Origin: Bacteroidota bacterium
GTDB lineage: Bacteria; Bacteroidota; Bacteroidia; UBA7662; JAIXUI01
DNA length: 64,000 bases
Reading direction: 5' to 3'
Assembly: GCA_027484125.1 (NCBI GenBank)
Contig: JAIXUI010000074.1
Location: forward strand, 63,791 to 127,790
The translations under genes and the position numbers were made by a program. Positions 7,831 to 62,590 of the stretch are shown here, one piece after another (within the stretch, counting starts at the first letter, position 1; each line of letters begins with the position of its first letter). The notes beneath the pieces are model-generated. The model was not told the origin of the DNA. It saw only the letters and a program-made list of their open reading frames with translations, and searched no databases.

Positions 7831-9879
7831 TTAGTAAGTGTAAATGTTTGCAGGGTTGCGGTATCCTGGAAGGTTACGATACCAGTCGGTTGAATTAACA
7901 CCACCGGAAGTAACCCAATCCATGAATTTCAAGTGAGCAGTTTGAATCGCTGAGTATTCTTTTGGATAAACAAACGGCTCTGGGATGTTGATAGCCCAAG
8001 GTGCGCCGTTGGAAGTTTTGTAGTAACGACCAGCACCTGGGTTTGAAGTATCCTTGCCTTTTCCAAACCAAGTTGCATCATGCTTTTCGGTAGGAGCCAT
8101 ATCTGGGAGGTGGATCTCGCGATCACGACCTTGAACGAAGATGAATGGGTTGAAAGGAGCATCCCCAAAATCTGCGATGCGCTGTGGAGAGGTCAAAGTT
8201 ACCGCCATAGTAAGGGTGTCAGAAGAAGCACGTGGCGCACCGATGATGGTATTGATTAGGTTACCCACTGCACCATTCAACATGTCGTAGGCATTTTCAT
8301 AAACAATCATGGTTGCTTTGTTAACTCCGGCTTCAGTACCATTTGGGCGGCGAGTGGTAGTACCACGGCTCCATTCACCACCTGTTACAGAGGCAATGGC
8401 AGTATGAGGTACACCTAAGCTGATTCCAAATCCATGAGGAAGCGCTCCACCTTTACCTCCAATGTAGTGGCGGCTGAACATTTCAACTACGCGGCTGTTG
8501 GCGTTTAATACCATGCGGTACTCATTGCCAATGGTCAAGTCATTGAAATCGTAATCGCCAACAGAAGGCCAAAGATCTTCGAATGCGAGGTGTGACTGAA
8601 CGTTGCGGTTGTAAGCGCGAGCACCATCGCAAGGATACTCGTCAAGACTGTCTGGAATACCGTCATTATCGCAGTCAGGAAGTGGAGTTAATGGCCAAAC
8701 GTCGGTTGAATCGATCGCAGTGGAAGTGGCATAGAAAACAACGTCGTTAAAGTCGTGGTCACCACTTACAGGAAGTTTGCGGCGAATGTCTTCGAAACCA
8801 AATACAAAACGGCGAGAAGCAGGTTCCCAAGCCAACACCATGTGTTGACGAAGTCCAACCGGAGCAAATGTATTAAGTGCAGGTAAAGAGTAAATTAAAC
8901 CAAAGTCTTTGTGGATGGTATTGGTTCCAGCATTGTAACCATGAGTTGCAATGGCAAAACCAACAATAGTATCTTTTCCAACAACACCAATATTGACCGT
9001 ATTACCAGAAACAAGTCCACCGCCACCACCGAGGTAAGAAGCATTAGGAAATACTGCAATAATTGAATCAATATCACCAGGGGTTGCAGGAGGATTGTTT
9101 TTGTGATACTTGAAGTAATACAGAGAATTTCTGTAACCAGCGCCTTCGTGGAGGAAGGTTACATTTACCGAACCTGTTGAGGTCATCAGAATCTCATGGC
9201 GGTAAGTACCATCAAACAAGAATGGACGCGCTACGGTCTGATTGGTAGATTCAGGAAGCGTTGAACCGATTAAGGTTCCAAATGGAACGCCAACAACCTG
9301 ATTCGGACCTAAGTAATTGGGAACTCCAACGCCATTCCATGTTCCCAAACGGGTAGAAATATAAGGCGCTGATAAAGTTCCGGAAGTACGAGCTGCTGCT
9401 GGAGCAGGTAGGTTGAATTCGTAATTTGGAAGATTGGTTGGATTAGTTCCACCAATAGTAGCCACAATGTTGTTGGCTGACATTGGGATCATCAAATCCT
9501 GTGGGAAGCCATAAGCGGAGGTTTCCATGACCAAGTTTTTAACTCGGGTTGGAATCGCTACAGGCATTTCAATTTTACCGTTATCGTCGGTGAAGGCTGT
9601 GAAAATTAATTCACCACCTAGTTTGGAAGGCTTATCAAAAAACTGAACACGAACCTTGCGGGCGACTGAATTATCAGAAGAACGGAAAGTAAGATCAAAA
9701 TTTTTGGTTTTAACCATCTCAAAGTTGAAGCCTGCCGGAATGGAAGCTTTATCGAGGCTTACTGCTGAATCGATGGTATCCATAGGCTGGTCGTCTTTAC
9801 GACAAGAGCTCACAGAGACCGCTCCGGCTAGCAATGCTAAACCCATTAATCGGGTATAGCGGCTTTTTAGGTTGAACAT
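7831..9879 (-). CDS. large secreted lipoprotein, LruC-domain-like (function unknown)
   Basis: The 699-aa ORF is trimmed to the Met of MFNLKSRYTRLMGLALLAGAVSVSSC (lipobox; ATG at 9877-9879). It contains repeated DFND/DYDFNDL acidic motifs. Assigning it to the LruC/DUF4842 family is from memory and is tentative. Confidence 0.5.
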   Translation of the reverse strand: MFNLKSRYTRLMGLALLAGAVSVSSCRKDDQPMDTIDSAVSLDKASIPAGFNFEMVKTKNFDLTFRSSDNSVARKVRVQFFDKPSKLGGELIFTAFTDDNGKIEMPVAIPTRVKNLVMETSAYGFPQDLMIPMSANNIVATIGGTNPTNLPNYEFNLPAPAAARTSGTLSAPYISTRLGTWNGVGVPNYLGPNQVVGVPFGTLIGSTLPESTNQTVARPFLFDGTYRHEILMTSTGSVNVTFLHEGAGYRNSLYYFKYHKNNPPATPGDIDSIIAVFPNASYLGGGGGLVSGNTVNIGVVGKDTIVGFAIATHGYNAGTNTIHKDFGLIYSLPALNTFAPVGLRQHMVLAWEPASRRFVFGFEDIRRKLPVSGDHDFNDVVFYATSTAIDSTDVWPLTPLPDCDNDGIPDSLDEYPCDGARAYNRNVQSHLAFEDLWPSVGDYDFNDLTIGNEYRMVLNANSRVVEMFSRHYIGGKGGALPHGFGISLGVPHTAIASVTGGEWSRGTTTRRPNGTEAGVNKATMIVYENAYDMLNGAVGNLINTIIGAPRASSDTLTMAVTLTSPQRIADFGDAPFNPFIFVQGRDREIHLPDMAPTEKHDATWFGKGKDTSNPGAGRYYKTSNGAPWAINIPEPFVYPKEYSAIQTAHLKFMDWVTSGGVNSTDWYRNLPGYRNPANIYTY

Positions 9880-15073: not shown

Positions 15074-16117
15074 TTAATCGACATTGACTGACGAGTCGTT
15101 TTCGTTCATCACCTTTGAAGCGCTAATCAAGTCGAGTTTACATTGATTGAATAACTCAACCCATGTTTCAGAATTTTCCAAGCCAGAAATGGCTGGAATA
15201 AAATCATTGATATCGTTAAGCAGTTGTTCCAATTGCTTATGGATGGTTCTACTTTCCTCTGAATTAATTTCTTGTAGCAATTTGCGAGTTAAAAGTAGCT
15301 CTTGTTCCACTTTCTTTCTATCGGTAATATCAAACAACATGCAATGGGTTTGCAGTTGATTTGTTTCTATATTTTGAACTGCACGACCAGCAAGTACCAC
15401 CTGCTTCACAAGGCCATCGGCGCGTTTTAATGGCACCTCGCAAACGATAGAACCATTAGACAGTAAAACTTCAAATTTAGAGGTGAACTGAGCAATTTCT
15501 TCTTCAAGCCAAACCATAGTAAATGGTTCACCTATCAATTGTTTATAAGAATATCCCAACAACTCCGAGAGCGCTTCATTCACGAACAGAAAGCTACCTT
15601 TTTCATTAAGAGACTGATAAGGAATAGGTGCTTTTAGCAACAAATCTCGAAACTTAAATTCGCTATCATAGAGGTTAAGAAATAAGGTGTGTTTATCGGT
15701 TATATCTTGAGTTATTCCTACGGTAAAAAGCGGTTTCCCATTATCATCATACTCCGTTTCACAAATCTGCTCCATGTATTTGATTTCACCATCAGGCAAT
15801 ACAGCTCGATGAGTTAGGCGATAGGGCTTTTTTTCCCTTATCGCGTCGAGGTAGCGATGACGAACCATTTCTCTATCATCAGGGTGTATAAAAGGTAAAA
15901 CACCTTGGTCTTTAATCAAATCATTGGATTCCTCTATTTTGTACAATCGATAGAGTTCCGCAGACATCCATACCTTATTTGCTACCCAGTCATGTTCCCA
16001 TAATCCAGAATAAGTAAACCGTTGAAGCTCTTGCAGTTTTCGCTCAGCATCGAACCAAGCCTCCTCGAGTCGCTTCAATTTTTCTCCTAACACTTCCGAT
16101 GTATTATCTTGATTCAT
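15074..16117 (-). CDS. PAS domain protein (N-terminal coiled coil plus two PAS-like domains, no recognisable output domain)
   Basis: 347-aa ORF. The PAS pattern (...WEHDWVANKVWMSAELYRLYKIE...) is repeated twice. Confidence 0.65.
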   Translation of the reverse strand: MNQDNTSEVLGEKLKRLEEAWFDAERKLQELQRFTYSGLWEHDWVANKVWMSAELYRLYKIEESNDLIKDQGVLPFIHPDDREMVRHRYLDAIREKKPYRLTHRAVLPDGEIKYMEQICETEYDDNGKPLFTVGITQDITDKHTLFLNLYDSEFKFRDLLLKAPIPYQSLNEKGSFLFVNEALSELLGYSYKQLIGEPFTMVWLEEEIAQFTSKFEVLLSNGSIVCEVPLKRADGLVKQVVLAGRAVQNIETNQLQTHCMLFDITDRKKVEQELLLTRKLLQEINSEESRTIHKQLEQLLNDINDFIPAISGLENSETWVELFNQCKLDLISASKVMNENDSSVNVD

Positions 16118-16130
16118 GGCGATACTTTAA

Positions 16131-17162
16131 TCAAACCTTAGTTTTTACTGAACTGCATTTATTAACAATGCGATGAATTGAAGTATCGAGATTCAGTAGG
16201 TCAACTTGAATCTTGTCTGCCAGTGAAATTTGAGCTTTATTTAAACTCAATTCTTCTTTTACAAGGGGTAAAATTCCCAACAAATTAGTTACCGGGTGAC
16301 GAAGAATATGCGACTGGCTCCAAGCTATATCTAAAAGTCGCTGATTTTGTTCCTTAATTTTCTCCTGATGGGTATTGATGTAAGTGATATCTAGCAAAAT
16401 TCCATGAAATTCATCAATCTGATGAAGACTTGAAGTGTAACGTTTCACAGTCATTGCCACGATAATCGGCCCCAACTTTGGCCTAACCAAAGTAAAATCG
16501 GCAGTTAGCTCTTCCGCATTTTTCGAATTAGCAATGCTCTTTTTGAAAGCTTCAACTTGATCTTTATTGAGAAATTGATGAAAATGCTTGCCTACAAGTG
16601 ATTCTGACGACTCCCCAATCAACTCGCAAAATCTTTCATTAACCATCGTTATCCTGCATTCTTGGTCAAAACTTACATAAGCTAATGGAGCTTTCGCTAC
16701 CATATCTTGAAACCGATTCGCACTTTCCTCGATTAGTTGAATGGCATTTTGCTTTTCAGTAATATCCTGGCAAGTTCCTATCGAGTACATAGGCTTACCA
16801 TCTGCATTAAAACGTGTTTCACAATGCTCTTCTACAAAACGAATTGAACCGTCATTAAGTACAATGCGATGAACGATGTTGTAGGTGGCTCTACTGTCTA
16901 AAGAATAAAGATAAGCCTTCTTTACTCGCTCCACTTCGTCTTCCGGAATACATGCAAGAAAGGAGGCAAAGCTAGGCTGAAACTCGAGCGGATCTTTCCC
17001 AAAGATTTTGTATATCTCTGAAGACCACCAAAGCTTGTTCTTGACCAAATCAAACTCCCATATTCCGGCTTTGGCAAACTGCTGCAAAACCTGCGTCTTT
17101 CGTTCCGTGTCATGCAAGGCCTGCTCTAAACGAGATATTCTTTCTTGCACCAAATGAAGCAT
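16131..17162 (-). CDS. PAS domain protein, tandem paralog; C-terminal HisKA-like H-box-like segment without ATPase domain
   Basis: 343-aa ORF with the same N-terminal coiled coil and PAS organisation as the neighbouring gene (...IWEFDLVKNKLWWSSEIYKIFG...). The C-terminus (...AWSQSHILRHPVTNLLGI...) resembles a histidine-kinase dimerisation box. Confidence 0.65.
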   Translation of the reverse strand: MLHLVQERISRLEQALHDTERKTQVLQQFAKAGIWEFDLVKNKLWWSSEIYKIFGKDPLEFQPSFASFLACIPEDEVERVKKAYLYSLDSRATYNIVHRIVLNDGSIRFVEEHCETRFNADGKPMYSIGTCQDITEKQNAIQLIEESANRFQDMVAKAPLAYVSFDQECRITMVNERFCELIGESSESLVGKHFHQFLNKDQVEAFKKSIANSKNAEELTADFTLVRPKLGPIIVAMTVKRYTSSLHQIDEFHGILLDITYINTHQEKIKEQNQRLLDIAWSQSHILRHPVTNLLGILPLVKEELSLNKAQISLADKIQVDLLNLDTSIHRIVNKCSSVKTKV

Positions 17163-17950: not shown

Positions 17951-18426
17951 CACTTTGACATCAACTTGGCCTCAAAGCCAACATCCTCAATGCCGAGTAA
18001 TGGATTGTCACGCATGTTTTGTTCTATTTCAAGCGTATAGGTGCCTGCCATAGGAAGTGTCCAGTACGAAGTAAGCCGACTGCGAAGTGTTATGGTAGCT
18101 CCAGACGTTTTTCCAAGCCATTGACCATTTTCATCAGCCAATTGAAGACTAACACGAAATCGCTGTATGCGGCCATTGGGTTGCTTAAGCCTGAGCATCA
18201 AATACAGATTCTCATAGGCATAATCATCAGCATGGCGCAGCTGAAGTGTAATCTGCACTTTCTTGTTGGGCTCAGTTACAACCAGCTCATGAGAAACTCG
18301 TTGGTTCCAGTTCCACTTTTCATCTTCTATCGACTCAAACACCTGTGCCAGTTGATTAGGGTCACGGTTACAGGCAGTGAGGGAAACAAACAGGCCAAGA
18401 CTTAGAGAAAACACCAGTTTACGCAT
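17950..18426 (-). CDS. gldH: gliding motility lipoprotein GldH-like
   Basis: Trimmed to the Met of MRKLVFSLSLGLFVSLTAC (lipobox; ATG at 18424-18426), giving a 158-aa lipoprotein. It overlaps the stop of the upstream PSP1 gene by 8 nt. A PSP1-gldH arrangement is, as I recall, conserved in gliding Bacteroidota. Confidence 0.55.
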   Translation of the reverse strand: MRKLVFSLSLGLFVSLTACNRDPNQLAQVFESIEDEKWNWNQRVSHELVVTEPNKKVQITLQLRHADDYAYENLYLMLRLKQPNGRIQRFRVSLQLADENGQWLGKTSGATITLRSRLTSYWTLPMAGTYTLEIEQNMRDNPLLGIEDVGFEAKLMSK

Positions 18427-20230
18427 CACCGGAAGTAGGTTTGTCTGGCCCTTTACCTGGATTGTTGGGGCGGTTATTATCTCTACGGTTGTCGCCACGT
18501 TGATCTCTTCGGTTGCGGTCAAATGGCTTTTTGCCTTCCTGAGGAGGATTGCTGCGAGGAGCATCCGCTTGTGGAGACTGCGGTTTAGGCCCACCTTCTG
18601 GTCGGTTTTCCTTAAATGGAGGGTTTTGCGGACGCTCACCACGCTCTTGACGTGGTTGTTGAGGCTTATTTTCGCCATCCTGGCGTTGTTCCCTAAATGG
18701 TGGTCTTTGTGGACGATCGCCTCGTTCATTGCGAGGTGGATGTTGTGGCTTGCTTTGGCCTTCACCACGTTGCTCCTTGAAGGGCGGCTTCTGCGGCCGT
18801 TCACCACGCTCAGCCTGAGGCTGCTGAGGATTTACAGGCGGTTGTCCGCTTGGCCTTTGTTCTTTGAAAGGCGGCCTTTGCGAACCCTCTCTACGTTCAC
18901 CTTGTGGCTGTTGTGGTTTCGGGCCCTCCTTTCTTTCCTGAGGACGGCGGTCTTCGGGCTTGCGAGGCGGCATTCCACCACGACGGGCATCGCCTTCGCT
19001 ACGCATTCGAACTTCTTGAGGTGCAACCTCTGACTTTGTAACCATGGTTGGAGGAGCTCCGGATTTAGCAGGAAGCGTAGCAACGGCATCGCCTGGCTTC
19101 TTCTTCTTTTTCTTCTTCTTTTTCCGGTCAAATCGGTTGAGGTCGCCCTCTATTACCGCTTCGAATTCTGGCTCTTCGTCCTCTTCTTCCTCCTCAGCTA
19201 AAGCCAGCAGCAAGTACTCATCTTCTGCCTTCTCCGGATGAATTCCGGATTCGTTCATGGCTCTAATTTCCTTTACACGCTCTGGAGAAAGGGGAATCAT
19301 GGTATTGTCACCGGGGCCTGCAGGAGTGTAGTACATGATGCGACGGAAAATGTCCGTTTTCATGAGCTCCAGCTTGCCCGTTTGAATCATGAGGTATTTG
19401 CAATCAGTAGGCAAATCCTTGAGTGCATCGAGGTAGGTGTCCAGCTCGTAATTAAGGCAGCATTTCAAACGGCCGCATTGCCCTGCCAGCTTAAGCGGGT
19501 TCAAAGACAAGTTCTGGTAACGGGCGGCTGAGGTGGTGACCGACTTGAAATCCGTTAACCAAGTGGAACAGCAAAGTTCTCTTCCACAAGTACCAATACC
19601 ACCAATGCGCCCTGCTTCCTGACGAGCCCCAATTTGACGCATTTCAACGCGAGTTTTGAAAGTCTCCGCCAGCACTTTGATGAGCTCACGAAAATCCACC
19701 CGGTCTTCAGCGGTATAATAGAAAATAATTTTTCCACCATCAGCTTGATATTCCACATCACTAAGTTTCATATCAAGCTTGAGTTCTTGAATCAACTCAC
19801 GGCTTTTGTAGATTACCTCAGGTTCTTTTTCCTTCAACGCGAAGTACTTATCGAGTTCTTCCTGACTAGCCTTTCTGAGAATACGCTTGAGGGTATTGTC
19901 GTCTTCTTGAATGCCCTTCTTCTTGAGTTGAAGACGAACGAGTTCGCCTTTAACTGAAACCTGTCCGATGTCGTATCCGGAGTTACCTGCCTCTAGAATG
20001 ATGTATTCGTTATTGAACAAATCGAGGCCGTCTTCATTACGGAAAAACTCCTTTCGAGTTCCCTTGAAACGTATCTCTACAATATTGAAAGCTGGCTGTT
20101 CGCCGGGCATAGTCATACCCGAAAGCCAGTCATATACATTCAGTCTGTTGCAACCTCCGGAACTACAATGGCCTTGGTCTCCGCAGCCGGCAGGCGAACA
20201 GCCTCCGCTTCCACAGCTTCCACATCCCAT
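18419..20230 (-). CDS. PSP1 C-terminal domain protein (RicT/YaaT-like) with a long low-complexity repeat tail
   Basis: Cys-rich N-terminus MGCGSCGSGGCSPAGCGDQGHCSSGGC (ATG at 20228-20230). PSP1 core (...LCCSTWL...CGRLKCCLNYELD...), then an acidic run, K9 and four roughly 28-aa P/Q/E/R-rich repeats. Confidence 0.8.
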   Translation of the reverse strand: MGCGSCGSGGCSPAGCGDQGHCSSGGCNRLNVYDWLSGMTMPGEQPAFNIVEIRFKGTRKEFFRNEDGLDLFNNEYIILEAGNSGYDIGQVSVKGELVRLQLKKKGIQEDDNTLKRILRKASQEELDKYFALKEKEPEVIYKSRELIQELKLDMKLSDVEYQADGGKIIFYYTAEDRVDFRELIKVLAETFKTRVEMRQIGARQEAGRIGGIGTCGRELCCSTWLTDFKSVTTSAARYQNLSLNPLKLAGQCGRLKCCLNYELDTYLDALKDLPTDCKYLMIQTGKLELMKTDIFRRIMYYTPAGPGDNTMIPLSPERVKEIRAMNESGIHPEKAEDEYLLLALAEEEEEDEEPEFEAVIEGDLNRFDRKKKKKKKKKPGDAVATLPAKSGAPPTMVTKSEVAPQEVRMRSEGDARRGGMPPRKPEDRRPQERKEGPKPQQPQGERREGSQRPPFKEQRPSGQPPVNPQQPQAERGERPQKPPFKEQRGEGQSKPQHPPRNERGDRPQRPPFREQRQDGENKPQQPRQERGERPQNPPFKENRPEGGPKPQSPQADAPRSNPPQEGKKPFDRNRRDQRGDNRRDNNRPNNPGKGPDKPTSGDA

Positions 20231-20578
20231 ATTAAATTCCTTTTTTGGTTTCCTGCAAAAATGCGGAAAAAAAGGAATACCAGCACCCAAGCTTAAGGAG
20301 CAGTAATTCGAGTAAAGACAAGCTTAATTAAATTTACAACAAGTGATCATTTGAAAAATCCTCCCAGAAAAAACCAGATTGAATTGTTCTTCAACTTAAG
20401 TTGAGGAATGGTTCACTAGTTGATTCAAAGTAGAAGGCTGTTTTAAAGTAAAATTTACACTTGCAAACGCTTTAAACAACCATTACCACTCAAAACATGC
20501 GGGAAGCGTAAAGAGAAAAGAAATAGATTTCACATTGCCCCATGCAACCTTGAACCATAAAATTTCGTCACCTTCGCA

Positions 20579-23819: not shown

Positions 23820-24061
23820 ACCTCGTTTCAAACTACATTTCAGAATTTCCGGCAACTTCTTTCCAACAAAACGACCTTGCTTAAGGTGGAGCATGCAATA
23901 CTGCATGGATATAATTTTTTGGCTATCCCTCATTAAAGGTTAACGATAGCATTCTTAATCGTCTTAATTGCTTCGAAATAAGTTGAAATGGATTTCAACT
24001 TATGCCCCAATGGGTGGTGGTTCAGTACGGCTTTCGTGTAACTTTGGGTCAATTTCAATTC

Positions 24062-27423: not shown

Positions 27424-27488
27424 TTTTTCAAAAATACTTAGACCCTTAGCGGTTTAGTGGCTACCACCCTTCTACCTTTGCGGCGTTC

Positions 27489-30302
27489 ATGAAGCAGGAG
27501 CCCACCCTTGACGTTCTCGGAGCCCGGGAACACAATCTCAAAAACATCGATTTGAGCCTCCCAAGGGAGAAACTCATTGTACTTACAGGCCTTAGTGGCA
27601 GCGGAAAATCATCCCTGGCATTTGACACCATCTATGCCGAAGGCCAACGCCGCTACATGGAGAGTTTTTCGGCTTATGCCCGTCAGTTTATAGGCGGAAT
27701 GGAGCGCCCCGACGTGGATAAAGTTGAAGGACTAAGCCCCGTCATCTCCATAGAACAAAAAACCACCAGCAGAAACCCCCGCTCCACCGTAGGCACCATC
27801 ACCGAGATCTACGACTTCCTTCGCTTACTCTACGCACGCGCCTCGGACGCTTATTCCTACGCCACCGGCAAACCCATGATCCGCCTCAGCGATGACCAGA
27901 TCATGCATCACCTACTTCAGCATTACAACGGCAAAAAAGTCATCATCCTCGCGCCCCTCGTGCGGGCAAGAAAAGGACACTACCGCGAACTCTTTGCCCA
28001 GCTCTTGAAAAACGGCTTCTCCAAAGTTCGTGTGGATGGCGAAATCCGGGAGTTGACCTCTAAAATGCAGGTAGATCGTTATCAAACCCACGATATCGAA
28101 CTCGTCATCGACCGCCTCGAAGTGGATGAAGCCTCAAAAACCCGCATGTCGCAGTCGATACAGGCAGGGATGAAACAAGGCAAAGGCGTCATCCTGATTC
28201 AAGACTACGAAACCGGCGAACTGTCCTTCTTCTCCAAGTTCCTCATGGATGCAGAAAGCGGCATCGCCTACGACGAGCCTCAACCTAACACCTTCTCCTT
28301 CAACTCTCCTTACGGCGCTTGCCCCAACTGCGAAGGCTTAGGCGAAATAGGCGAAGTGGACCCCCAGCTTATCGTTCCGGACCCCACCAAATCGGTGCAT
28401 GGCGGCGCCATTGCGCCCTTGGGAGAATACCGCGACATCTGGTTCTTCCGCATCCTCAAAGCCCTCGCAAAACGACATAAATTCAGTCTATCGGTTCCAT
28501 TTTCTTCCTACAGCGAGGAAGTGCGCAACCTCATTTTCCATGGTCACGACGAGCCCCTACTGATGGAATCGAATACCGGAAGCTCCTATCACCATGTATT
28601 CGAAGGCATCATCAACGTACTCCGTAAAAATCTGCATGAACCCGGTAGCGAAAATCTCCAGGAATGGGCCGAAGAATTCGTTACACGGGTTGAATGTCCG
28701 GAATGCCAGGGCAATCGGCTAAAGAAGGAAGCCCTGCATTTTAAAATCGACGGAAAAAACATCTCCGAGCTTGCTCGCATGGAACTTTCCACCTTGCAAA
28801 CATGGATGCAGGGGCTAGAATCGCGGATGAGCGAGCGGCAGCAGCTTATCGGAGCTGAAATTCTCAAGGAAATCCGTAAGCGACTCGGCTTCCTCCTCGA
28901 CATCGGTCTTGCCTACCTCGATTTGAACCGACCCTCCGGCACCCTGTCGGGAGGCGAAGCCCAGCGAATCCGCTTGGCTACCCAGATAGGCTCACAACTC
29001 GTAGGCGTACTCTACATCCTCGACGAACCCAGCATTGGCTTGCACCAGCGCGACAACAGCCGCTTAATTGGTTCACTTAAGCAGCTCCGCGACCTGGGCA
29101 ACACCGTTTTGGTAGTAGAACACGACAAAGACATGATTCTTGAAAGCGACTACGTGGTGGACATTGGACCAGGCGCTGGCCTTTATGGCGGGCAAGTAGT
29201 GGCCCAAGGCACGCCAGAGCAGTTTATGAAGCAGGATTCCCTCACCGCCCGCTACCTCAGCGGCGCAATGGAAATCCCTATTCCCGCCGAGCGCCGCGCC
29301 GGCAGTGGCCAATTCCTGCATTTACACGGTGCAAGCGGCCATAACCTACGCAACGTTAGCGTGCGCTTTCCGCTCGGCACCCTCATCGCCATAACGGGCG
29401 TTTCCGGTTCTGGGAAGTCAAGCTTAGTAACAGAAACCCTCTATCCCATCCTGCGACAACACTTCTACCACAGCCGCCAGAAACCTTTGCCCTACGAAAA
29501 GCTGGAAGGGATGGCGTGGGTGGATAAAGTCATAGAGATAGATCAGGCTCCGATTGGGCGAACACCCCGTTCCAATGCCGCTACTTACACAGGGGTCTTC
29601 AACGACATTCGCGCCTTATTTGCCGAGCTACCCGAAGCCAAAATCCGCGGTTATAAACCAGGGCGTTTTTCCTTCAATGTAAAAGGCGGAAGGTGTGAAA
29701 CTTGCGGCGGCGCCGGGGTGCGCGTGGTGGAGATGAACTTCTTGCCCGACGTGGAAGTAAACTGCGAAGACTGCCAAGGTAAACGATACAACCGCGAAAC
29801 CCTGGAGTTGCGCTACAAAGGCAAGAGCATCGCTGACGTACTCAACATGCCCATCAGCGAAGCCGTCAGTTTCTTCGCCCATGTGCCTGCTATTGTACGG
29901 AAAATCGACACCCTCAACAGCGTGGGCCTCGGCTACCTCACCCTCGGACAGAGCTCCACCACCCTTTCCGGAGGTGAAGCCCAGCGCGTGAAACTGGCCA
30001 CTGAGCTCAGCAAGCGCGACACCGGCAAAACCTTCTACATCCTCGACGAGCCTACCACCGGATTGCACTTCGAAGACATCCGCATTCTGATGGAAGTACT
30101 GCAACGCTTGGTAGATCGCGGCAATACCGTACTCATCATCGAGCACAACCTCGACGTCATCAAAGTGGCCGATCACGTCATCGACATGGGGCCCGAAGGC
30201 GGGAAAGAAGGCGGAATGGTGGTGTTTGAAGGCACCCCGGAAGGCCTATGTGAGCATCCGGGAAGCTTCACCGGGCATTTTCTCAAGCTGGAAATGCAGT
30301 AG
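27489..30302 (+). CDS. uvrA: excinuclease ABC subunit UvrA
   Basis: 937-aa ORF with two ABC ATPase modules (GLSGSGKSSLAFDT... and GVSGSGKSSLV...) and zinc-finger CxxC pairs. Confidence 0.95.
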   Translation: MKQEPTLDVLGAREHNLKNIDLSLPREKLIVLTGLSGSGKSSLAFDTIYAEGQRRYMESFSAYARQFIGGMERPDVDKVEGLSPVISIEQKTTSRNPRSTVGTITEIYDFLRLLYARASDAYSYATGKPMIRLSDDQIMHHLLQHYNGKKVIILAPLVRARKGHYRELFAQLLKNGFSKVRVDGEIRELTSKMQVDRYQTHDIELVIDRLEVDEASKTRMSQSIQAGMKQGKGVILIQDYETGELSFFSKFLMDAESGIAYDEPQPNTFSFNSPYGACPNCEGLGEIGEVDPQLIVPDPTKSVHGGAIAPLGEYRDIWFFRILKALAKRHKFSLSVPFSSYSEEVRNLIFHGHDEPLLMESNTGSSYHHVFEGIINVLRKNLHEPGSENLQEWAEEFVTRVECPECQGNRLKKEALHFKIDGKNISELARMELSTLQTWMQGLESRMSERQQLIGAEILKEIRKRLGFLLDIGLAYLDLNRPSGTLSGGEAQRIRLATQIGSQLVGVLYILDEPSIGLHQRDNSRLIGSLKQLRDLGNTVLVVEHDKDMILESDYVVDIGPGAGLYGGQVVAQGTPEQFMKQDSLTARYLSGAMEIPIPAERRAGSGQFLHLHGASGHNLRNVSVRFPLGTLIAITGVSGSGKSSLVTETLYPILRQHFYHSRQKPLPYEKLEGMAWVDKVIEIDQAPIGRTPRSNAATYTGVFNDIRALFAELPEAKIRGYKPGRFSFNVKGGRCETCGGAGVRVVEMNFLPDVEVNCEDCQGKRYNRETLELRYKGKSIADVLNMPISEAVSFFAHVPAIVRKIDTLNSVGLGYLTLGQSSTTLSGGEAQRVKLATELSKRDTGKTFYILDEPTTGLHFEDIRILMEVLQRLVDRGNTVLIIEHNLDVIKVADHVIDMGPEGGKEGGMVVFEGTPEGLCEHPGSFTGHFLKLEMQ

Positions 30303-30310
30303 GGGGAGTA

Positions 30311-30660
30311 TCACCAAGTGCACTACGGTGTCACCAAGCACACGAGGTAGAATTGAATAGCTTTTATAAAAACCTAGTGCTCCTTGTGAAACCCTAGAGA
30401 ACCTTGTGATAACCCCGCGCGCCGTGTTTCACCAAGGACACAGGGAACGTCACAAAATACACGAGATAGAATTAATTAGCTTTTATAAAAACTTAGTGCT
30501 CCTTGTGAAACCCTTAGAGAACCTTGTGATAACCCCGCGCGCCGTGTATCACCAAGCACACGAGGTAGAATTGAATAGCTTTTATAAAAACCTAGTGCTC
30601 CTTGTGAAAACCTAGAGAGCTTTGTGATAACCCCGCGCTACGTGTATCTTGGGAATAGAT
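30311..30660. repeat. tandem direct repeat, about 3.3 copies of a 98-119-nt unit, between uvrA and the exonuclease gene
   Basis: The unit is tcaccaagcacacgaggtagaattgaatagcttttataaaaacctagtgctccttgtgaaaccctagagaaccttgtgataaccccgcgcgccgtgt. Copies lie at about 30331-30428, 30429-30547 (with a 20-nt insertion) and 30548-30647, with a partial copy at 30311-30330. Copies 1 and 3 are near-identical. Confidence 0.85.
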
Positions 30661-30682: not shown

Positions 30683-31159
30683 ATGGAGGTAAACAGGTTT
30701 ACAGCCTTTGATGTAGAGACTGCGACAAATGAGTCGAGCAGTATCTGCCAGATTGGAATCGTAGTTTACGAAGACGGCGAGGAGTTTTACCATTTCCAAT
30801 CGAAGGTGCAGCCACCCGGCAATCGCTACCATTGGAACAACATCCGTGTTCACGGCATAGAACCACGCCAAACCCTCCACAGTCCAACCTTTGGCGAAAT
30901 ATATCCCAACATCCGGCAATTCTTCGAAGGACAAAACGTAGTAGCCCATAATATCCCCTTCGATAAGCGCTGCCTCGCTAAAACCCTTCAATACTACGGC
31001 CTTGAAACACCGAGTTTCACCTCATACTGCACCTACAAACTCTACCGAAAGAAACTCTCCGAACTCGCCACCGACTACGGAATCTCCCTCCAGCACCATG
31101 ACGCCCTCAGCGACGCCAGAGCCTGCGCCGAACTATTTACTCGGTGGTTAAAGCGGTAA
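30683..31159 (+). CDS. DEDDh-family 3'-5' exonuclease (DnaQ/epsilon-like domain, stand-alone)
   Basis: Exo I motif FDVETA, Exo II VAHNIPFDKRCL and Exo III HHDALSDARACAELF. Confidence 0.8.
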   Translation: MEVNRFTAFDVETATNESSSICQIGIVVYEDGEEFYHFQSKVQPPGNRYHWNNIRVHGIEPRQTLHSPTFGEIYPNIRQFFEGQNVVAHNIPFDKRCLAKTLQYYGLETPSFTSYCTYKLYRKKLSELATDYGISLQHHDALSDARACAELFTRWLKR

Positions 31160-31231: not shown

Positions 31232-34200
31232 ATGAATCAAGGCATTTACGAAGAGCTAGTGACAAAATTGGTAGCTCAAAAAATAAATGAATTAGATAAA
31301 AACGCATATCATATCAATAAAACAAAGATTGATAAGGCAGAAGCCTCTATTATTCTAGCCAAGCATTTATCAAGCACCATAAAACGAGCTTTAGAACTAG
31401 TTAGTGGCGAAAATCAATTAGAGCTACAAATAGCCATTGCGAATAAAATTATTCAGTTCTTAAAAGAGGAACTACACAAAGAAGATTTCACAAACGATTT
31501 AATTGAGGTAGAAGGCGAACTATTAAAAGCTGTTTTCACCAAAGTAGACGCCTTTTTTTCTGATTTTGAATTGCATCTTAAAGAAATTACTCCCTATACA
31601 AGACTCACGCACAGTGAACTATTTACGGGAGGAAACGTGGGATTATCACTAGAAAGTGAGTTAAAAAAAGAAATTCTATCTGCAAATAGAATAGACTTTC
31701 TTGTATCATTTATCAAATTTAAAGGAATTATTATTCTCGAAAAGGAACTACAAGAGTTTACTAAACGAGGCGGAAAACTTCGTGTAATTACGACAACCTA
31801 CATGGGTGCTTCTGATTACAAAGCAATTCAATTGCTTTCAAAAATGGAAAACACCGAAGTGAAAATTTCTTATAACACAGGAAACGAACGACTTCATGCA
31901 AAAGCTTATTTGTTTTACCGAGAAACAGGATTTCATACTGGATATATTGGTTCATCGAACTTTTCCAGGTCTGCACTTACGGATGGTTTAGAATGGAATA
32001 TAAAAATTACCACCAAGGAAGTCAGCCATATTATTGACAAATTCCAGAAAACGTTTGACTCCTATTGGCAGAGTGATGACTTTGAAATTTTTGACGATTC
32101 TCTTCACAAAGAGAAATTAGTTGCTTCTTTAAATCAAGGTAAAATTTCGAAAACTACGGAAATCAATCACTCCTTTTTTGAAGTAAAACCCTATCCCTTT
32201 CAACTCGAAATTTTAGAGCAACTAGAAGTAGAACGTTCAGTTCATGAAAGAAATAGAAATTTAGTTGTTGCTGCAACAGGTACAGGAAAAACAGTAATTT
32301 CTGCATTTGACTACAAACGTTTTAAGCAAAAAAATAAATCTTCCAAACTTTTATTTTTAGCTCATAGGAAAGAAATCTTAACGCAAGCAATAGCCACATT
32401 TCGAGGTGTATTACGAGACAATAATTTTGGTGAGCTTTGGGTGGATAGAATGGAACCTTCTAATTATGAGTATGTATTTGCCTCTGTTCAAACATTGAAC
32501 AACAGAATTGATAACTTGACTTTAACTCCGGAATATTTCGATTTTATTATAATTGATGAATGTCATCACTTAACCGCAGATACCTATAGGGCTACAATCC
32601 ATTACTTTAAGCCAAAAATTCTTTTAGGATTAACAGCTACTCCAGAAAGAATGGATGGCGGAGATATTCAGGAAGATTTTCATAACAAAATTGCAGCAGA
32701 AATACGTTTGCCAGAAGCTTTAAACAGAAAACTTCTTTGTCCTTTTCAATATTTTGGCATATCAGATAGCATTGATTTATCCAATGTTGATTGGGAAAGA
32801 GGAAGATATGTAGCTAGTCAGTTAACCAATATTTATACGGCAAATGACAGAAGAGTAAGTGAAATCATTCAAGCGCTTGAAAAGTACACCAAAGACTCCA
32901 CAGATGTTCGGGCGCTAGGTTTTTGTGTTTCAATAGAACATGCCAAATTTATGGCAGAAAAATTTTCACTTGCAGGTTTTAAAACAGACTATTTAACCAG
33001 TGCCAATAATGAAAATAGAGAATCAATAAGAAGTAAATTGCTGAACAAGGAAATTAACTACTTATTTGTTGTGGATATTTTTAATGAAGGGGTAGATATT
33101 CCGGAAATTGATACTGTATTGTTCTTAAGACCCACAGAAAGTTTAACCATTTTCTTACAACAGCTCGGAAGAGGACTTAGGTTGGCAGAAAACAAAGACT
33201 GTCTTACAGTATTAGATTTTGTAGGTAATGCAAGACCTGAATATAACTTTGAAAATAAATTTAGGGCTTTAATTGGCAAAACCACAACGACCGTACATAA
33301 AGAAGTTGAGGATAATTTTCCTCACTTGCCACTAGGATGTTCTATTGTATTAGAAAAAAAGGCAAAAGAAATTATTTTAGAAAATATTAAATCTGCCACA
33401 ACGCTGAATCGAAATCAGATTATCAGTAAAATCAAGAATTTCAAGCACCAAACCACATTACCACTTACCTTAAAAAACTTTATAGAGTTCAATAACCTTA
33501 CAATTCAAGCCCTATACAAAAGAGGCTCTTGGAAAAGATTGTGTCAAGAGGCGGGAGTTATTGACAATTTTGAGTCAGTCAACGAAAAAGAAATTTATTC
33601 TGCTATTTCCAATAAATGGCTATCTACGAGTTCAACCAGTTATTTCAAATTCATTCTAAAGCTAGCAACGTATAATTTTCAAGTCAGTGTTTCTGACTTA
33701 AATTCCAAAGAAAGAACGATGCTATTGATGCTTCATTACGATGTTTGGCAAAAAGCAGGAGGTTTTGATTCGATTGAAGAAAGTATTAGAGCCATTGGTA
33801 AAAACAAGGTTTTTGTGGAGGAAATGATTGAAGTTCTTGAAATATTAGAAGACAAAATCGATTTCAAAGAAATTGACATTCAACTCCCTTACCATCAGCC
33901 CTTAAAAGTTCATGCTCGATACACAAGAGATCAAATTTTGTCGGCGTTTGGATTTAGTACCTTCGATAGAAAATCCTCAAGCCGAGAAGGCGTTGCAGAA
34001 AATACTGATTTAAACACTGAATTATTATTCATCAACTTGATAAAATCAGAGGAAAACTTTTCTCCTACCACCATGTATGACGATTACGCCATCAACGAAT
34101 ACTTGTTTCATTGGCAAAGTCAAAATACGGCTGGACCTGAAACTCCAAAAGGGTTATCATACATCAAACATCAGGAAAACAAAAAGAAAATACTGTTATT

Positions 34201-34372
34201 CATAAGAGAAAAAACTAAGGACGAGCACGGAAATACAATGGGATATGTGTTCGTTGGAGAAGGTAATCTCCAAGAATACTATGGAGCAAAACCGATGAAT
34301 ATTAAATGGAAGCTTAGCGTACCTTTACCACATTATTTGTGGAATGATGCTGCCAAATTGAGGGTTGGTTGA
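31232..34372 (+). CDS. PLD-family nuclease – SF2 (ResIII-type) helicase – DUF3427 fusion protein; SauUSI-like putative modification-dependent (type IV) restriction endonuclease
   Basis: 1046-aa ORF. Single HKD motif HAKAYLFYRETGFHTGYIGSSNFS. Helicase motif I AATGTGKT, motif II IIIDECHH, motif III LTATP and motif VI QQLGRGLR. The C-terminal 350 aa are DUF3427-like. GC is about 33-35% against about 48% in the flanks. Confidence 0.75.
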   Translation: MNQGIYEELVTKLVAQKINELDKNAYHINKTKIDKAEASIILAKHLSSTIKRALELVSGENQLELQIAIANKIIQFLKEELHKEDFTNDLIEVEGELLKAVFTKVDAFFSDFELHLKEITPYTRLTHSELFTGGNVGLSLESELKKEILSANRIDFLVSFIKFKGIIILEKELQEFTKRGGKLRVITTTYMGASDYKAIQLLSKMENTEVKISYNTGNERLHAKAYLFYRETGFHTGYIGSSNFSRSALTDGLEWNIKITTKEVSHIIDKFQKTFDSYWQSDDFEIFDDSLHKEKLVASLNQGKISKTTEINHSFFEVKPYPFQLEILEQLEVERSVHERNRNLVVAATGTGKTVISAFDYKRFKQKNKSSKLLFLAHRKEILTQAIATFRGVLRDNNFGELWVDRMEPSNYEYVFASVQTLNNRIDNLTLTPEYFDFIIIDECHHLTADTYRATIHYFKPKILLGLTATPERMDGGDIQEDFHNKIAAEIRLPEALNRKLLCPFQYFGISDSIDLSNVDWERGRYVASQLTNIYTANDRRVSEIIQALEKYTKDSTDVRALGFCVSIEHAKFMAEKFSLAGFKTDYLTSANNENRESIRSKLLNKEINYLFVVDIFNEGVDIPEIDTVLFLRPTESLTIFLQQLGRGLRLAENKDCLTVLDFVGNARPEYNFENKFRALIGKTTTTVHKEVEDNFPHLPLGCSIVLEKKAKEIILENIKSATTLNRNQIISKIKNFKHQTTLPLTLKNFIEFNNLTIQALYKRGSWKRLCQEAGVIDNFESVNEKEIYSAISNKWLSTSSTSYFKFILKLATYNFQVSVSDLNSKERTMLLMLHYDVWQKAGGFDSIEESIRAIGKNKVFVEEMIEVLEILEDKIDFKEIDIQLPYHQPLKVHARYTRDQILSAFGFSTFDRKSSSREGVAENTDLNTELLFINLIKSEENFSPTTMYDDYAINEYLFHWQSQNTAGPETPKGLSYIKHQENKKKILLFIREKTKDEHGNTMGYVFVGEGNLQEYYGAKPMNIKWKLSVPLPHYLWNDAAKLRVG

Positions 34373-37581: not shown

Positions 37582-37721
37582 ACTGAAAATTAAGGAACTG
37601 ACGCATTATTAAAGAATTGACAAGTCTGCAAACAACCATTCCAATAAATATTTGTAAAAAAGGCCCTTGCAAAATTTTAAGTAAAAACTAAATTTGTATC
37701 CAATTGAATACAATTTCACCA

Positions 37722-62351: not shown

Positions 62352-62590
62352 GATGGATGCAAATTTAAAACCCTTATTTATATTCAGTCTAATTAAATTG
62401 AATATAATTATATCTAATATTCTTTCATCTGACTCAAAAACTGCTTTCTGGGCTCTGATAACCCAATCCTAGTCTTTCTACAGTTTCACTTTTACAGTAT
62501 TTTGACAAATACCCTTAGAAGTTCTCTGGTGTAAAAGCTCAAAAGATTGACGAACACGTCCTTCATCCCCTATTTTTGGAGAGCGGAATC

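Follow-up and report, generated by a model that had tools for sequence, protein, structure and literature searches.

At this locus an array of tandem repeats lies between uvrA and a gene for a DEDD-family exonuclease, filling most of the 380 nt that separate the uvrA stop codon (30300-30302) from the exonuclease start at 30683, and a gene for a Type IV methyl-directed restriction enzyme follows on the same strand (Table 1). An earlier note on this DNA, made from the sequence alone, had named the flanking genes as uvrA, an exonuclease and a restriction-like gene, and Pfam and PADLOC confirm all three. The restriction enzyme carries the Pfam domains PLDc_2, ResIII, Helicase_C and DUF3427, in an order that we take to resemble that of the SauUSI type. 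Its GC content is 0.34, against a host-like 0.50 for both the exonuclease gene and the following NUDIX gene and a mean of 0.45 for the window, by which we mean the whole 64-kb stretch of DNA that was analysed; it has the appearance of one gene inserted horizontally between the other two. We treat this gene as neighbouring context of the array, any link between the two being putative.

Elsewhere the window has the ordinary housekeeping content of a chromosome. No regulator, integrase, transposase, rep or par gene was present among the 26 predicted window proteins scanned, and a tRNA/tmRNA scan of the window returned neither kind of gene. Two observations concern genes away from the array. On the minus strand at 15074-17162, two adjacent paralogous PAS-domain proteins of 347 and 343 aa occupy a low-GC stretch (0.37-0.39) and are probably a tandem gene duplication. 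A PSP1-domain protein (18419-20290, minus strand) contains CTT/TCT triplet tracts at 19097-19124 and 19172-19195 within its coding sequence, which on the coding strand give low-complexity acidic or lysine-rich runs.

Relatives of its UvrA protein place the host in a poorly sampled part of the Bacteroidota, the best match being a metagenome-assembled genome (MAG), L001, at 90% amino acid identity, with all others at 66% or below. Synteny between L001 and the window stops at the uvrA stop codon, and neither the repeat nor the exonuclease gene is found downstream of uvrA in L001; the corresponding stretch 3' of uvrA there (compared at 8812-9010) has a convergent gene instead, and the exonuclease, restriction enzyme and NUDIX genes are all absent. 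In a collection of 5.8 billion protein clusters, homologues of the exonuclease drop from 99% to 59% identity with nothing between, and those at 59% or less are stand-alone genes in unrelated contexts. The absence of these genes from L001, together with this gap among the exonuclease homologues, argues that the whole segment downstream of uvrA is specific to this species. No boxes similar to those of the array were found upstream of the distant exonuclease homologues, either in the upstream region of one of them (L093) when read directly or on comparison of the degenerate box consensus with the loci fetched from other species.

Table 1. Features of the uvrA-exonuclease locus, in window coordinates.
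Feature	Position	Strand	Description	Evidence
uvrA	27489-30302	+	937 aa, left flank	Pfam UvrA_inter, UvrA_DNA-bind, ABC_tran; exact protein on Logan and NCBI contigs
Whole tandem array	30308-30645	+	3 units, 11 twenty-nt boxes, order >><< >><< ><<	Repeat searches, alignment, box matrix
Unit 1	30308-30425	+	118 nt	Alignment; box PWM scores 25.1-27.7 bits
Unit 1, forward box a	30308-30327	+
Unit 1, forward box a'	30328-30347	+
Unit 1, AT-rich centre	30348-30372	+
Unit 1, reverse box b1	30373-30392	+
Unit 1, reverse box b2	30393-30412	+
Unit 1, GC-rich tail	30413-30425	+
Repeat-derived ORF	30406-30615	+	69 aa, judged not a gene
Unit 2	30426-30545	+	120 nt, diverged (type-2); degenerate forward boxes start at 30426 and 30447, reverse boxes at 30492 and 30513
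Unit 3	30546-30645	+	about 100 nt; one hybrid a/a' forward box (30546-30565), reverse boxes at 30591 and 30611
Candidate exonuclease promoter, Bacteroidota type	30621-30652	+	TTTG 30621-30624, 20 nt, TATCTTGG 30645-30652	Prediction only
Exonuclease	30683-31159	+	DEDD (RNase_T/DnaQ-like) 3'-5' exonuclease, 158 aa, right flank	Pfam PF00929, PF16473
Type IV methyl-directed restriction enzyme	31232-34372	+	1046 aa, PLD nuclease, helicase and DUF3427	PADLOC mREase_IV, full length, E 7e-234

Organization of the tandem repeat

A minisatellite-like array upstream of the exonuclease gene had been described before, and both repeat searches and alignment bear this description out. Tandem Repeats Finder reports a repeat of period 99 between the two genes, with 1.9 copies, 89% matches and a score of 308 (30459-30648), while a repeat search of the window finds a 103-nt segment three times, starting at 30328, 30447 and 30546 with spacings of 119 and 99 nt. 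Copy 3 of this segment is 93% identical to copy 1, and copy 2 is 66% identical to copy 1 when ungapped and 90% identical over a 100-nt core once gapped. The window contains three occurrences of a 22-nt core of the unit where zero would be expected, and it is confirmed that the tandem repeat 3' of uvrA is real and far beyond chance.

The view of the earlier note that there are three copies, of which the first and third are near-identical and the second diverged, holds. The 20-nt insertion that it saw in copy 2, however, is not an insertion, because the same extra 20-nt box also precedes copy 1 (30308-30327). Taking this extra box into account, units 1 and 2 are both close to 120 nt (118 and 120 nt) and it is unit 3 that is short of one box. 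The array so delimited starts only five bases past the uvrA stop codon, and its last unit ends at about 30645.

The units share a common plan, in which one to three forward 20-nt boxes lead into a 25-nt AT-rich centre (TAGAATTGAATAGCTTTTATAAAAA), followed by two reverse boxes and a 13-nt GC-rich tail (CCCCGCGCGCCGT), and these two kinds of spacer alternate along the array. The boxes conform to the consensus GTnTCACmArGnnCwCnAGG, with a skeleton (T4, C5, A6, C7, A9, C14 and C16) that is invariant in 11 of 11 boxes and three further positions (G11, A18 and G20) that are kept in 10 of the 11. Neighbouring boxes of the same orientation start 20-21 bp apart, and the box 20-mer itself is not a palindrome. 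On a position weight matrix (PWM) built from these same 11 boxes, the array boxes score 14.6-27.7 bits; the best site outside the array in the 64-kb window reaches 14.4 bits and just four outside sites exceed 12 bits. A 7-nt tandem (CACCAAG x 2.1) in a purL-like gene with AIRS domains (2292-2306) is similar in sequence to the CACCAAG at the core of the forward boxes; it falls below threshold on the box matrix and the likeness is probably coincidental.

Conservation is unevenly distributed within the unit, the reverse boxes and the AT-rich centre being far better conserved between units than the forward boxes, a pattern that fits either constraint or homogenisation. In an alignment read by eye, unit 2 differs from unit 1 at about 14 positions in the 40 nt of forward boxes and at about four in the other 80 nt. 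With head-to-tail units of 118, 120 and 100 nt, all of which lie outside coding sequence, the array is best read as being, in kind, an ordinary bacterial intergenic VNTR.

Variation between strains

Looking up the exact proteins yielded this locus from other samples too, where its flanks share 98.8-99.9% identity with those of the window. Copy-number variation between strains, which the earlier note had put forward as a check, is found: against the three units of the window, two Logan contigs show a single one and the NCBI MAG GCA_027485865.1 five or more, all assemblies except the window being built from short reads, so that the exact copy numbers, the single-unit form included, may be distorted. 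The two Logan contigs come from different samples (L081 and L089) and run uninterrupted through an intergenic region of 162 nt. In their single-unit form, the first part of window unit 1 runs directly into the last part of unit 3, and the sole unit of strain L081 is 99% identical to window unit 3. Both contigs of GCA_027485865.1 end inside the array, the left one reading >><< >><< >>>< and the right one < ><< >><<; the figure of at least five units supposes that these two ends abut, and one of the units has three forward boxes. The array also interrupts at least seven further short-read contigs; nine contigs from other samples stop within it, and breaks at the array occur in at least six independent samples.

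Across the strains, a unit has a left half of the kind GAGGTAGAATTGAATAGC or GAGATAGAATTAATTAGC and one of two kinds of right half; all four pairings occur, and the number of forward boxes per unit is one, two or three. Mosaic units of this type are the signature of unequal exchange, and would result from unequal crossing-over within the shared central segment, a mechanism that we infer from the arrangement of the units. The hybrid a/a' box of the 100-nt unit is consistent with slippage from one box to the next. Divergence between type-1 and type-2 units amounts to about 10-18%, against about 1% between the strains, so that multi-unit arrays are older than the strain split and have persisted for a long time. 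The single-unit form may then be a secondary deletion. Unless they are assembly collapses, the single-unit contigs indicate that the extra units are dispensable.

Promoter signals and possible operators

A candidate promoter for the exonuclease gene overlaps the right end of the array. Its -33 TTTG lies within the b2 box of the last unit, its -7 element (TATCTTGG) is mostly outside the repeat, and it ends 30 nt before the exonuclease ATG. On either strand, this is the sole intergenic site that combines at least five of six matches to TAnnTTTG with a TTG 18-22 nt upstream, a combination for which chance predicts about 0.05 sites per 60-nt stretch. Support for the candidate is modest, and the promoter assignment is a putative one made from sequence. 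Exact TAnnTTTG boxes also stand 8-25 nt before the likely starts of genes in the window, at 27473-27480 (uvrA), 24039-24046, 37689-37696 and 62571-62578, and their positions suggest that the listed ORF starts at 24002 and 62576 are too far upstream. The uvrA box is just 8 nt before the ATG, a gap that points to very short or absent leaders.

The intergenic scan found no promoter-like site, whether of Bacteroidota type or of sigma-70 type, in the interior units. At the position of the -7 element the interior junctions read TATCACCA or TTTCACCA, and the interior units can therefore not be complete promoters. The sigma-70 scan of the intergenic region gave a single weak site, on the minus strand, which is below the number seen in shuffled sequence, and a terminator scan of the same region gave no intrinsic terminator. 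These results do not support two of the functions that had been proposed for the repeat. Duplicated promoter modules find no support, because the repeat holds only the -33 half of a single candidate promoter and its interior units are without any promoter-like site. Nor does a phase-variable spacing element, because units of 100-140 nt that precede the -33 element and overlap no gene leave the spacing of the promoter unchanged.

A more substantial alternative is that the boxes are operator- or enhancer-like sites, to which a putative protein would bind so as to control the exonuclease promoter and perhaps the restriction enzyme, with the number of units tuning expression. We hold this to be possible, as the main rival of the minisatellite reading favoured below, but clearly less likely than it. 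The invariant skeleton of the boxes, their 20-21-bp phasing and their symmetry about the AT-rich centre all favour such an arrangement, as do the position of the last unit, which abuts the single promoter-like site, the strong conservation of the reverse boxes and centre, and the persistence of the array beyond the divergence of the strains. Small DnaQ-like exonucleases of the Bacteroidota (COG0847) are predicted members of a DNA-damage regulon and often have two or more operator sites (PMC8565304); since the exonuclease gene here adjoins uvrA, an array of operators at this place is an attractive idea. Against it, none of the SOS motifs published for the Bacteroidota, which are recognised by a non-canonical LexA and comprise GGA-N5-TCC, CTAA-N5-TTAG and other 4-N5-4 dyads (PMC8565304), is matched by the boxes. 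Read by eye against these motifs, with no scoring matrix, the boxes hold CTAG-N5-CTTG, which is not a dyad, and an SOS operator of this kind was rejected. Furthermore, the scanned window proteins include no regulator, the box occurs at no other promoter in the 64 kb, the type-2 forward boxes are decaying (one scores 14.6 bits) and a strain with a single unit exists. It is less likely again that the array constitutes a copy-number-tunable bank of operators for a putative, possibly damage-linked, binding protein, through which strains would tune the exonuclease, and perhaps the Type IV restriction enzyme, by means of 100-140-bp units; we regard this version as doubtful.

RNA structure and the repeat-derived reading frame

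The inverted boxes give the locus a capacity to fold. On either strand, unit 1 can fold as a single long, imperfect hairpin (-28.2 and -34.7 kcal/mol), and the intergenic region as a whole folds better than shuffled sequence (z -3.8 and -4.5). Taken with the start of the array 5 nt past the uvrA stop codon and the lack of any terminator-like site in the intergenic scan, this would suit an element that acts at the level of RNA, either as hairpins in a uvrA-exonuclease co-transcript, which might stabilise the uvrA message, attenuate read-through or direct processing, or as one small RNA per unit. We consider an RNA-level role unlikely. The fold of the whole array is what would be expected of any array of inverted boxes, and the individual units fold weakly, with z scores of -0.5 to -1.9 (-1.8 to -1.9 for unit 1, and no better than shuffled for unit 2). 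Between units 1 and 2, none of the 12 changed stem pairs is compensated, and eight of 31 pairs are broken in unit 2; the forward boxes of type-2 units decay without compensation in their reverse partners, and the hairpin weakens from -26.3 to -19.4 kcal/mol. Rfam gave no match for the whole window at the gathering threshold, nor for the intergenic region at E values up to 10. The hairpin idea was rejected for want of covariation, and the small-RNA array suggested previously is likewise unsupported, given also no Rfam match and no promoter or terminator in any unit.

The repeat gives rise to one open reading frame, of 69 aa, which the earlier note had already held to be non-coding. This judgement is upheld: only a 1-nt insertion present in some units keeps the frame open, single-unit strains lack the ORF, and its translation belongs to no Pfam family and has no homologue among 5.8 billion clustered proteins.

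Copies elsewhere and mobile elements

Neither the 64-kb window nor the flanks fetched from other strains contain the unit or the box at a second place. Exact scans with DNA patterns from the unit gave 0 matches in GTDB representative genomes, JGI metagenomes (two patterns) and IMG/VR, and BLASTN of the repeat returned no match among plasmid records and, among phages, just one 44-nt match at the level of chance (E 9e-3). The array is so far locus-specific within the sequence available, that is, the 64-kb window, the fetched flanks and the public collections, and the many loci in one genome that characterise a dispersed family were not seen in these scans. It is also not a fragment of an rRNA, a tRNA or a known RNA element, as judged from Rfam and the tRNA scan, and it has no meaningful phage or plasmid match. 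An origin as an integration scar can be set aside, as the window holds no tRNA or second copy and, among the proteins scanned, no integrase, and its sole compositionally foreign gene, the low-GC restriction enzyme (0.34), does not adjoin the array but is separated from it by the host-like exonuclease gene (0.50).

The array might nonetheless represent a dispersed MITE-like or REP/BIME-like family that is clustered here and has its remaining copies beyond the available sequence. The plan of the unit is compatible with this, with inverted arms of 40 nt, about 70% matching, around an AT-rich core, and with alternating boxes and two kinds of spacer in the manner of MITEs and BIMEs; moreover, a MITE that contains a minisatellite, BrickBuilt, is known from the Bacteroidota (PMC4596501). 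We judge such a family to be improbable here, given the lack of a second copy in any of the collections searched, of a transposase among the proteins scanned, and of a target-site duplication in the sequence, where the GTATC found at either end of the single unit is also the beginning of a box. Finally, short-read assemblers do collapse or break at tandem repeats, and the array cuts short nine contigs from other samples, yet it is very improbable that mis-assembly created the array or its copy-number differences, as the window and an independent NCBI MAG both hold several diverged units in different orders, breaks in at least six independent samples are as expected of a real repeat, and two single-unit contigs run through unbroken.

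Discussion

The organization of the array and its variation between strains lead us to favour, with a probability of roughly 55%, a hypervariable two-level minisatellite (VNTR), known so far from one locus, whose extra units have little or no function. In this model the basic brick would be the 20-bp box, and boxes, AT-rich centre and tail would together make up a unit of 100-140 bp, units being stacked head to tail directly past the uvrA stop codon. Unequal crossing-over or replication slippage between units would allow the array to grow, shrink and reshuffle, and slippage between adjacent boxes would provide a second route of change. The duplicated segment would then be the DNA immediately upstream of the candidate exonuclease promoter. 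Since the last unit supplies the -33 TTTG and the -7 element lies outside the repeat, just the promoter-proximal unit could form part of this promoter, and the extra units would be by-products of recombination, contributing at most spare boxes and a greater distance between uvrA and the exonuclease promoter.

The near-neutrality of the extra units is inferred, as are the recombination mechanism and the promoter assignment, and some features of the locus count against it. The long persistence of multi-unit arrays could reflect selection rather than drift. Likewise, the regular layout of the boxes, with their 20-21-bp phasing around an AT-rich centre, looks like an array of protein-binding sites.

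Whichever function the units may have, the array is a highly polymorphic locus that could be used to type strains of this uncultured Bacteroidota lineage. It also breaks short-read assemblies, which explains the ends of contigs in public MAGs and among the Logan contigs. The array would be of biological interest only if the number of units tunes the expression of the exonuclease and restriction genes. If that were true, it would exemplify regulation in which long repeat units come and go, in a phylum whose cis-regulation is poorly known, and a bank of operators in particular would amount to a recombination-driven regulatory rheostat, unlike classical phase variation by short repeats.

Comparison with characterised repeats places the favoured minisatellite near several families without assigning it to one. 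So far it differs from the MIRU, BIME and BrickBuilt families in that no second locus was found in the sequence searched (the 64-kb window, flanks and public collections). The MIRU-VNTR loci of Mycobacterium tuberculosis are intergenic minisatellites with units of 46-101 bp; about 40 dispersed loci make up the family, some members of which carry small ORFs that overlap the stop and start codons of the flanking genes. The array resembles them in its unit of about 100 bp, its position between co-directional genes and a copy number that varies between close strains. It differs from them in being seen at one locus, in its spurious ORF and in its internal inverted 20-bp boxes. BIMEs of Escherichia coli are clusters of REP elements, or palindromic units, which occur at hundreds of sites per genome, each of them a palindrome. 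Here the similarity lies in a location outside genes, immediately past a stop codon, in alternately oriented boxes with two types of spacer and in a variable number of repeats, whereas the box of the array is non-palindromic, occurs nowhere else in the 64 kb and has no sequence similarity to REP.

Iteron and centromere-like arrays of plasmids offer a third parallel, an example being sopC of the F plasmid, with 12 tandem 43-bp units that each contain an inverted repeat. Tandem units with inverted boxes beside AT-rich DNA are common to both, protein binding being a feature of the plasmid arrays; the array described here differs in its chromosomal housekeeping context, with no rep or par gene among the proteins scanned and no plasmid match.

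BrickBuilt, a MITE-borne minisatellite of Porphyromonas gingivalis, is built of 23-nt bricks plus leader and tail subunits that have inverted ends; a genome contains 19 copies, and experiments have shown the element to possess bidirectional promoter activity (PMC4596501). Unlike BrickBuilt, our array occupies one locus, is organised at two levels of repetition and has no promoter-like site inside its units. The two nevertheless have in common that they are intergenic elements of Bacteroidota, made of tandem bricks about 20 nt long, with a species-specific sequence and a number of bricks that varies.
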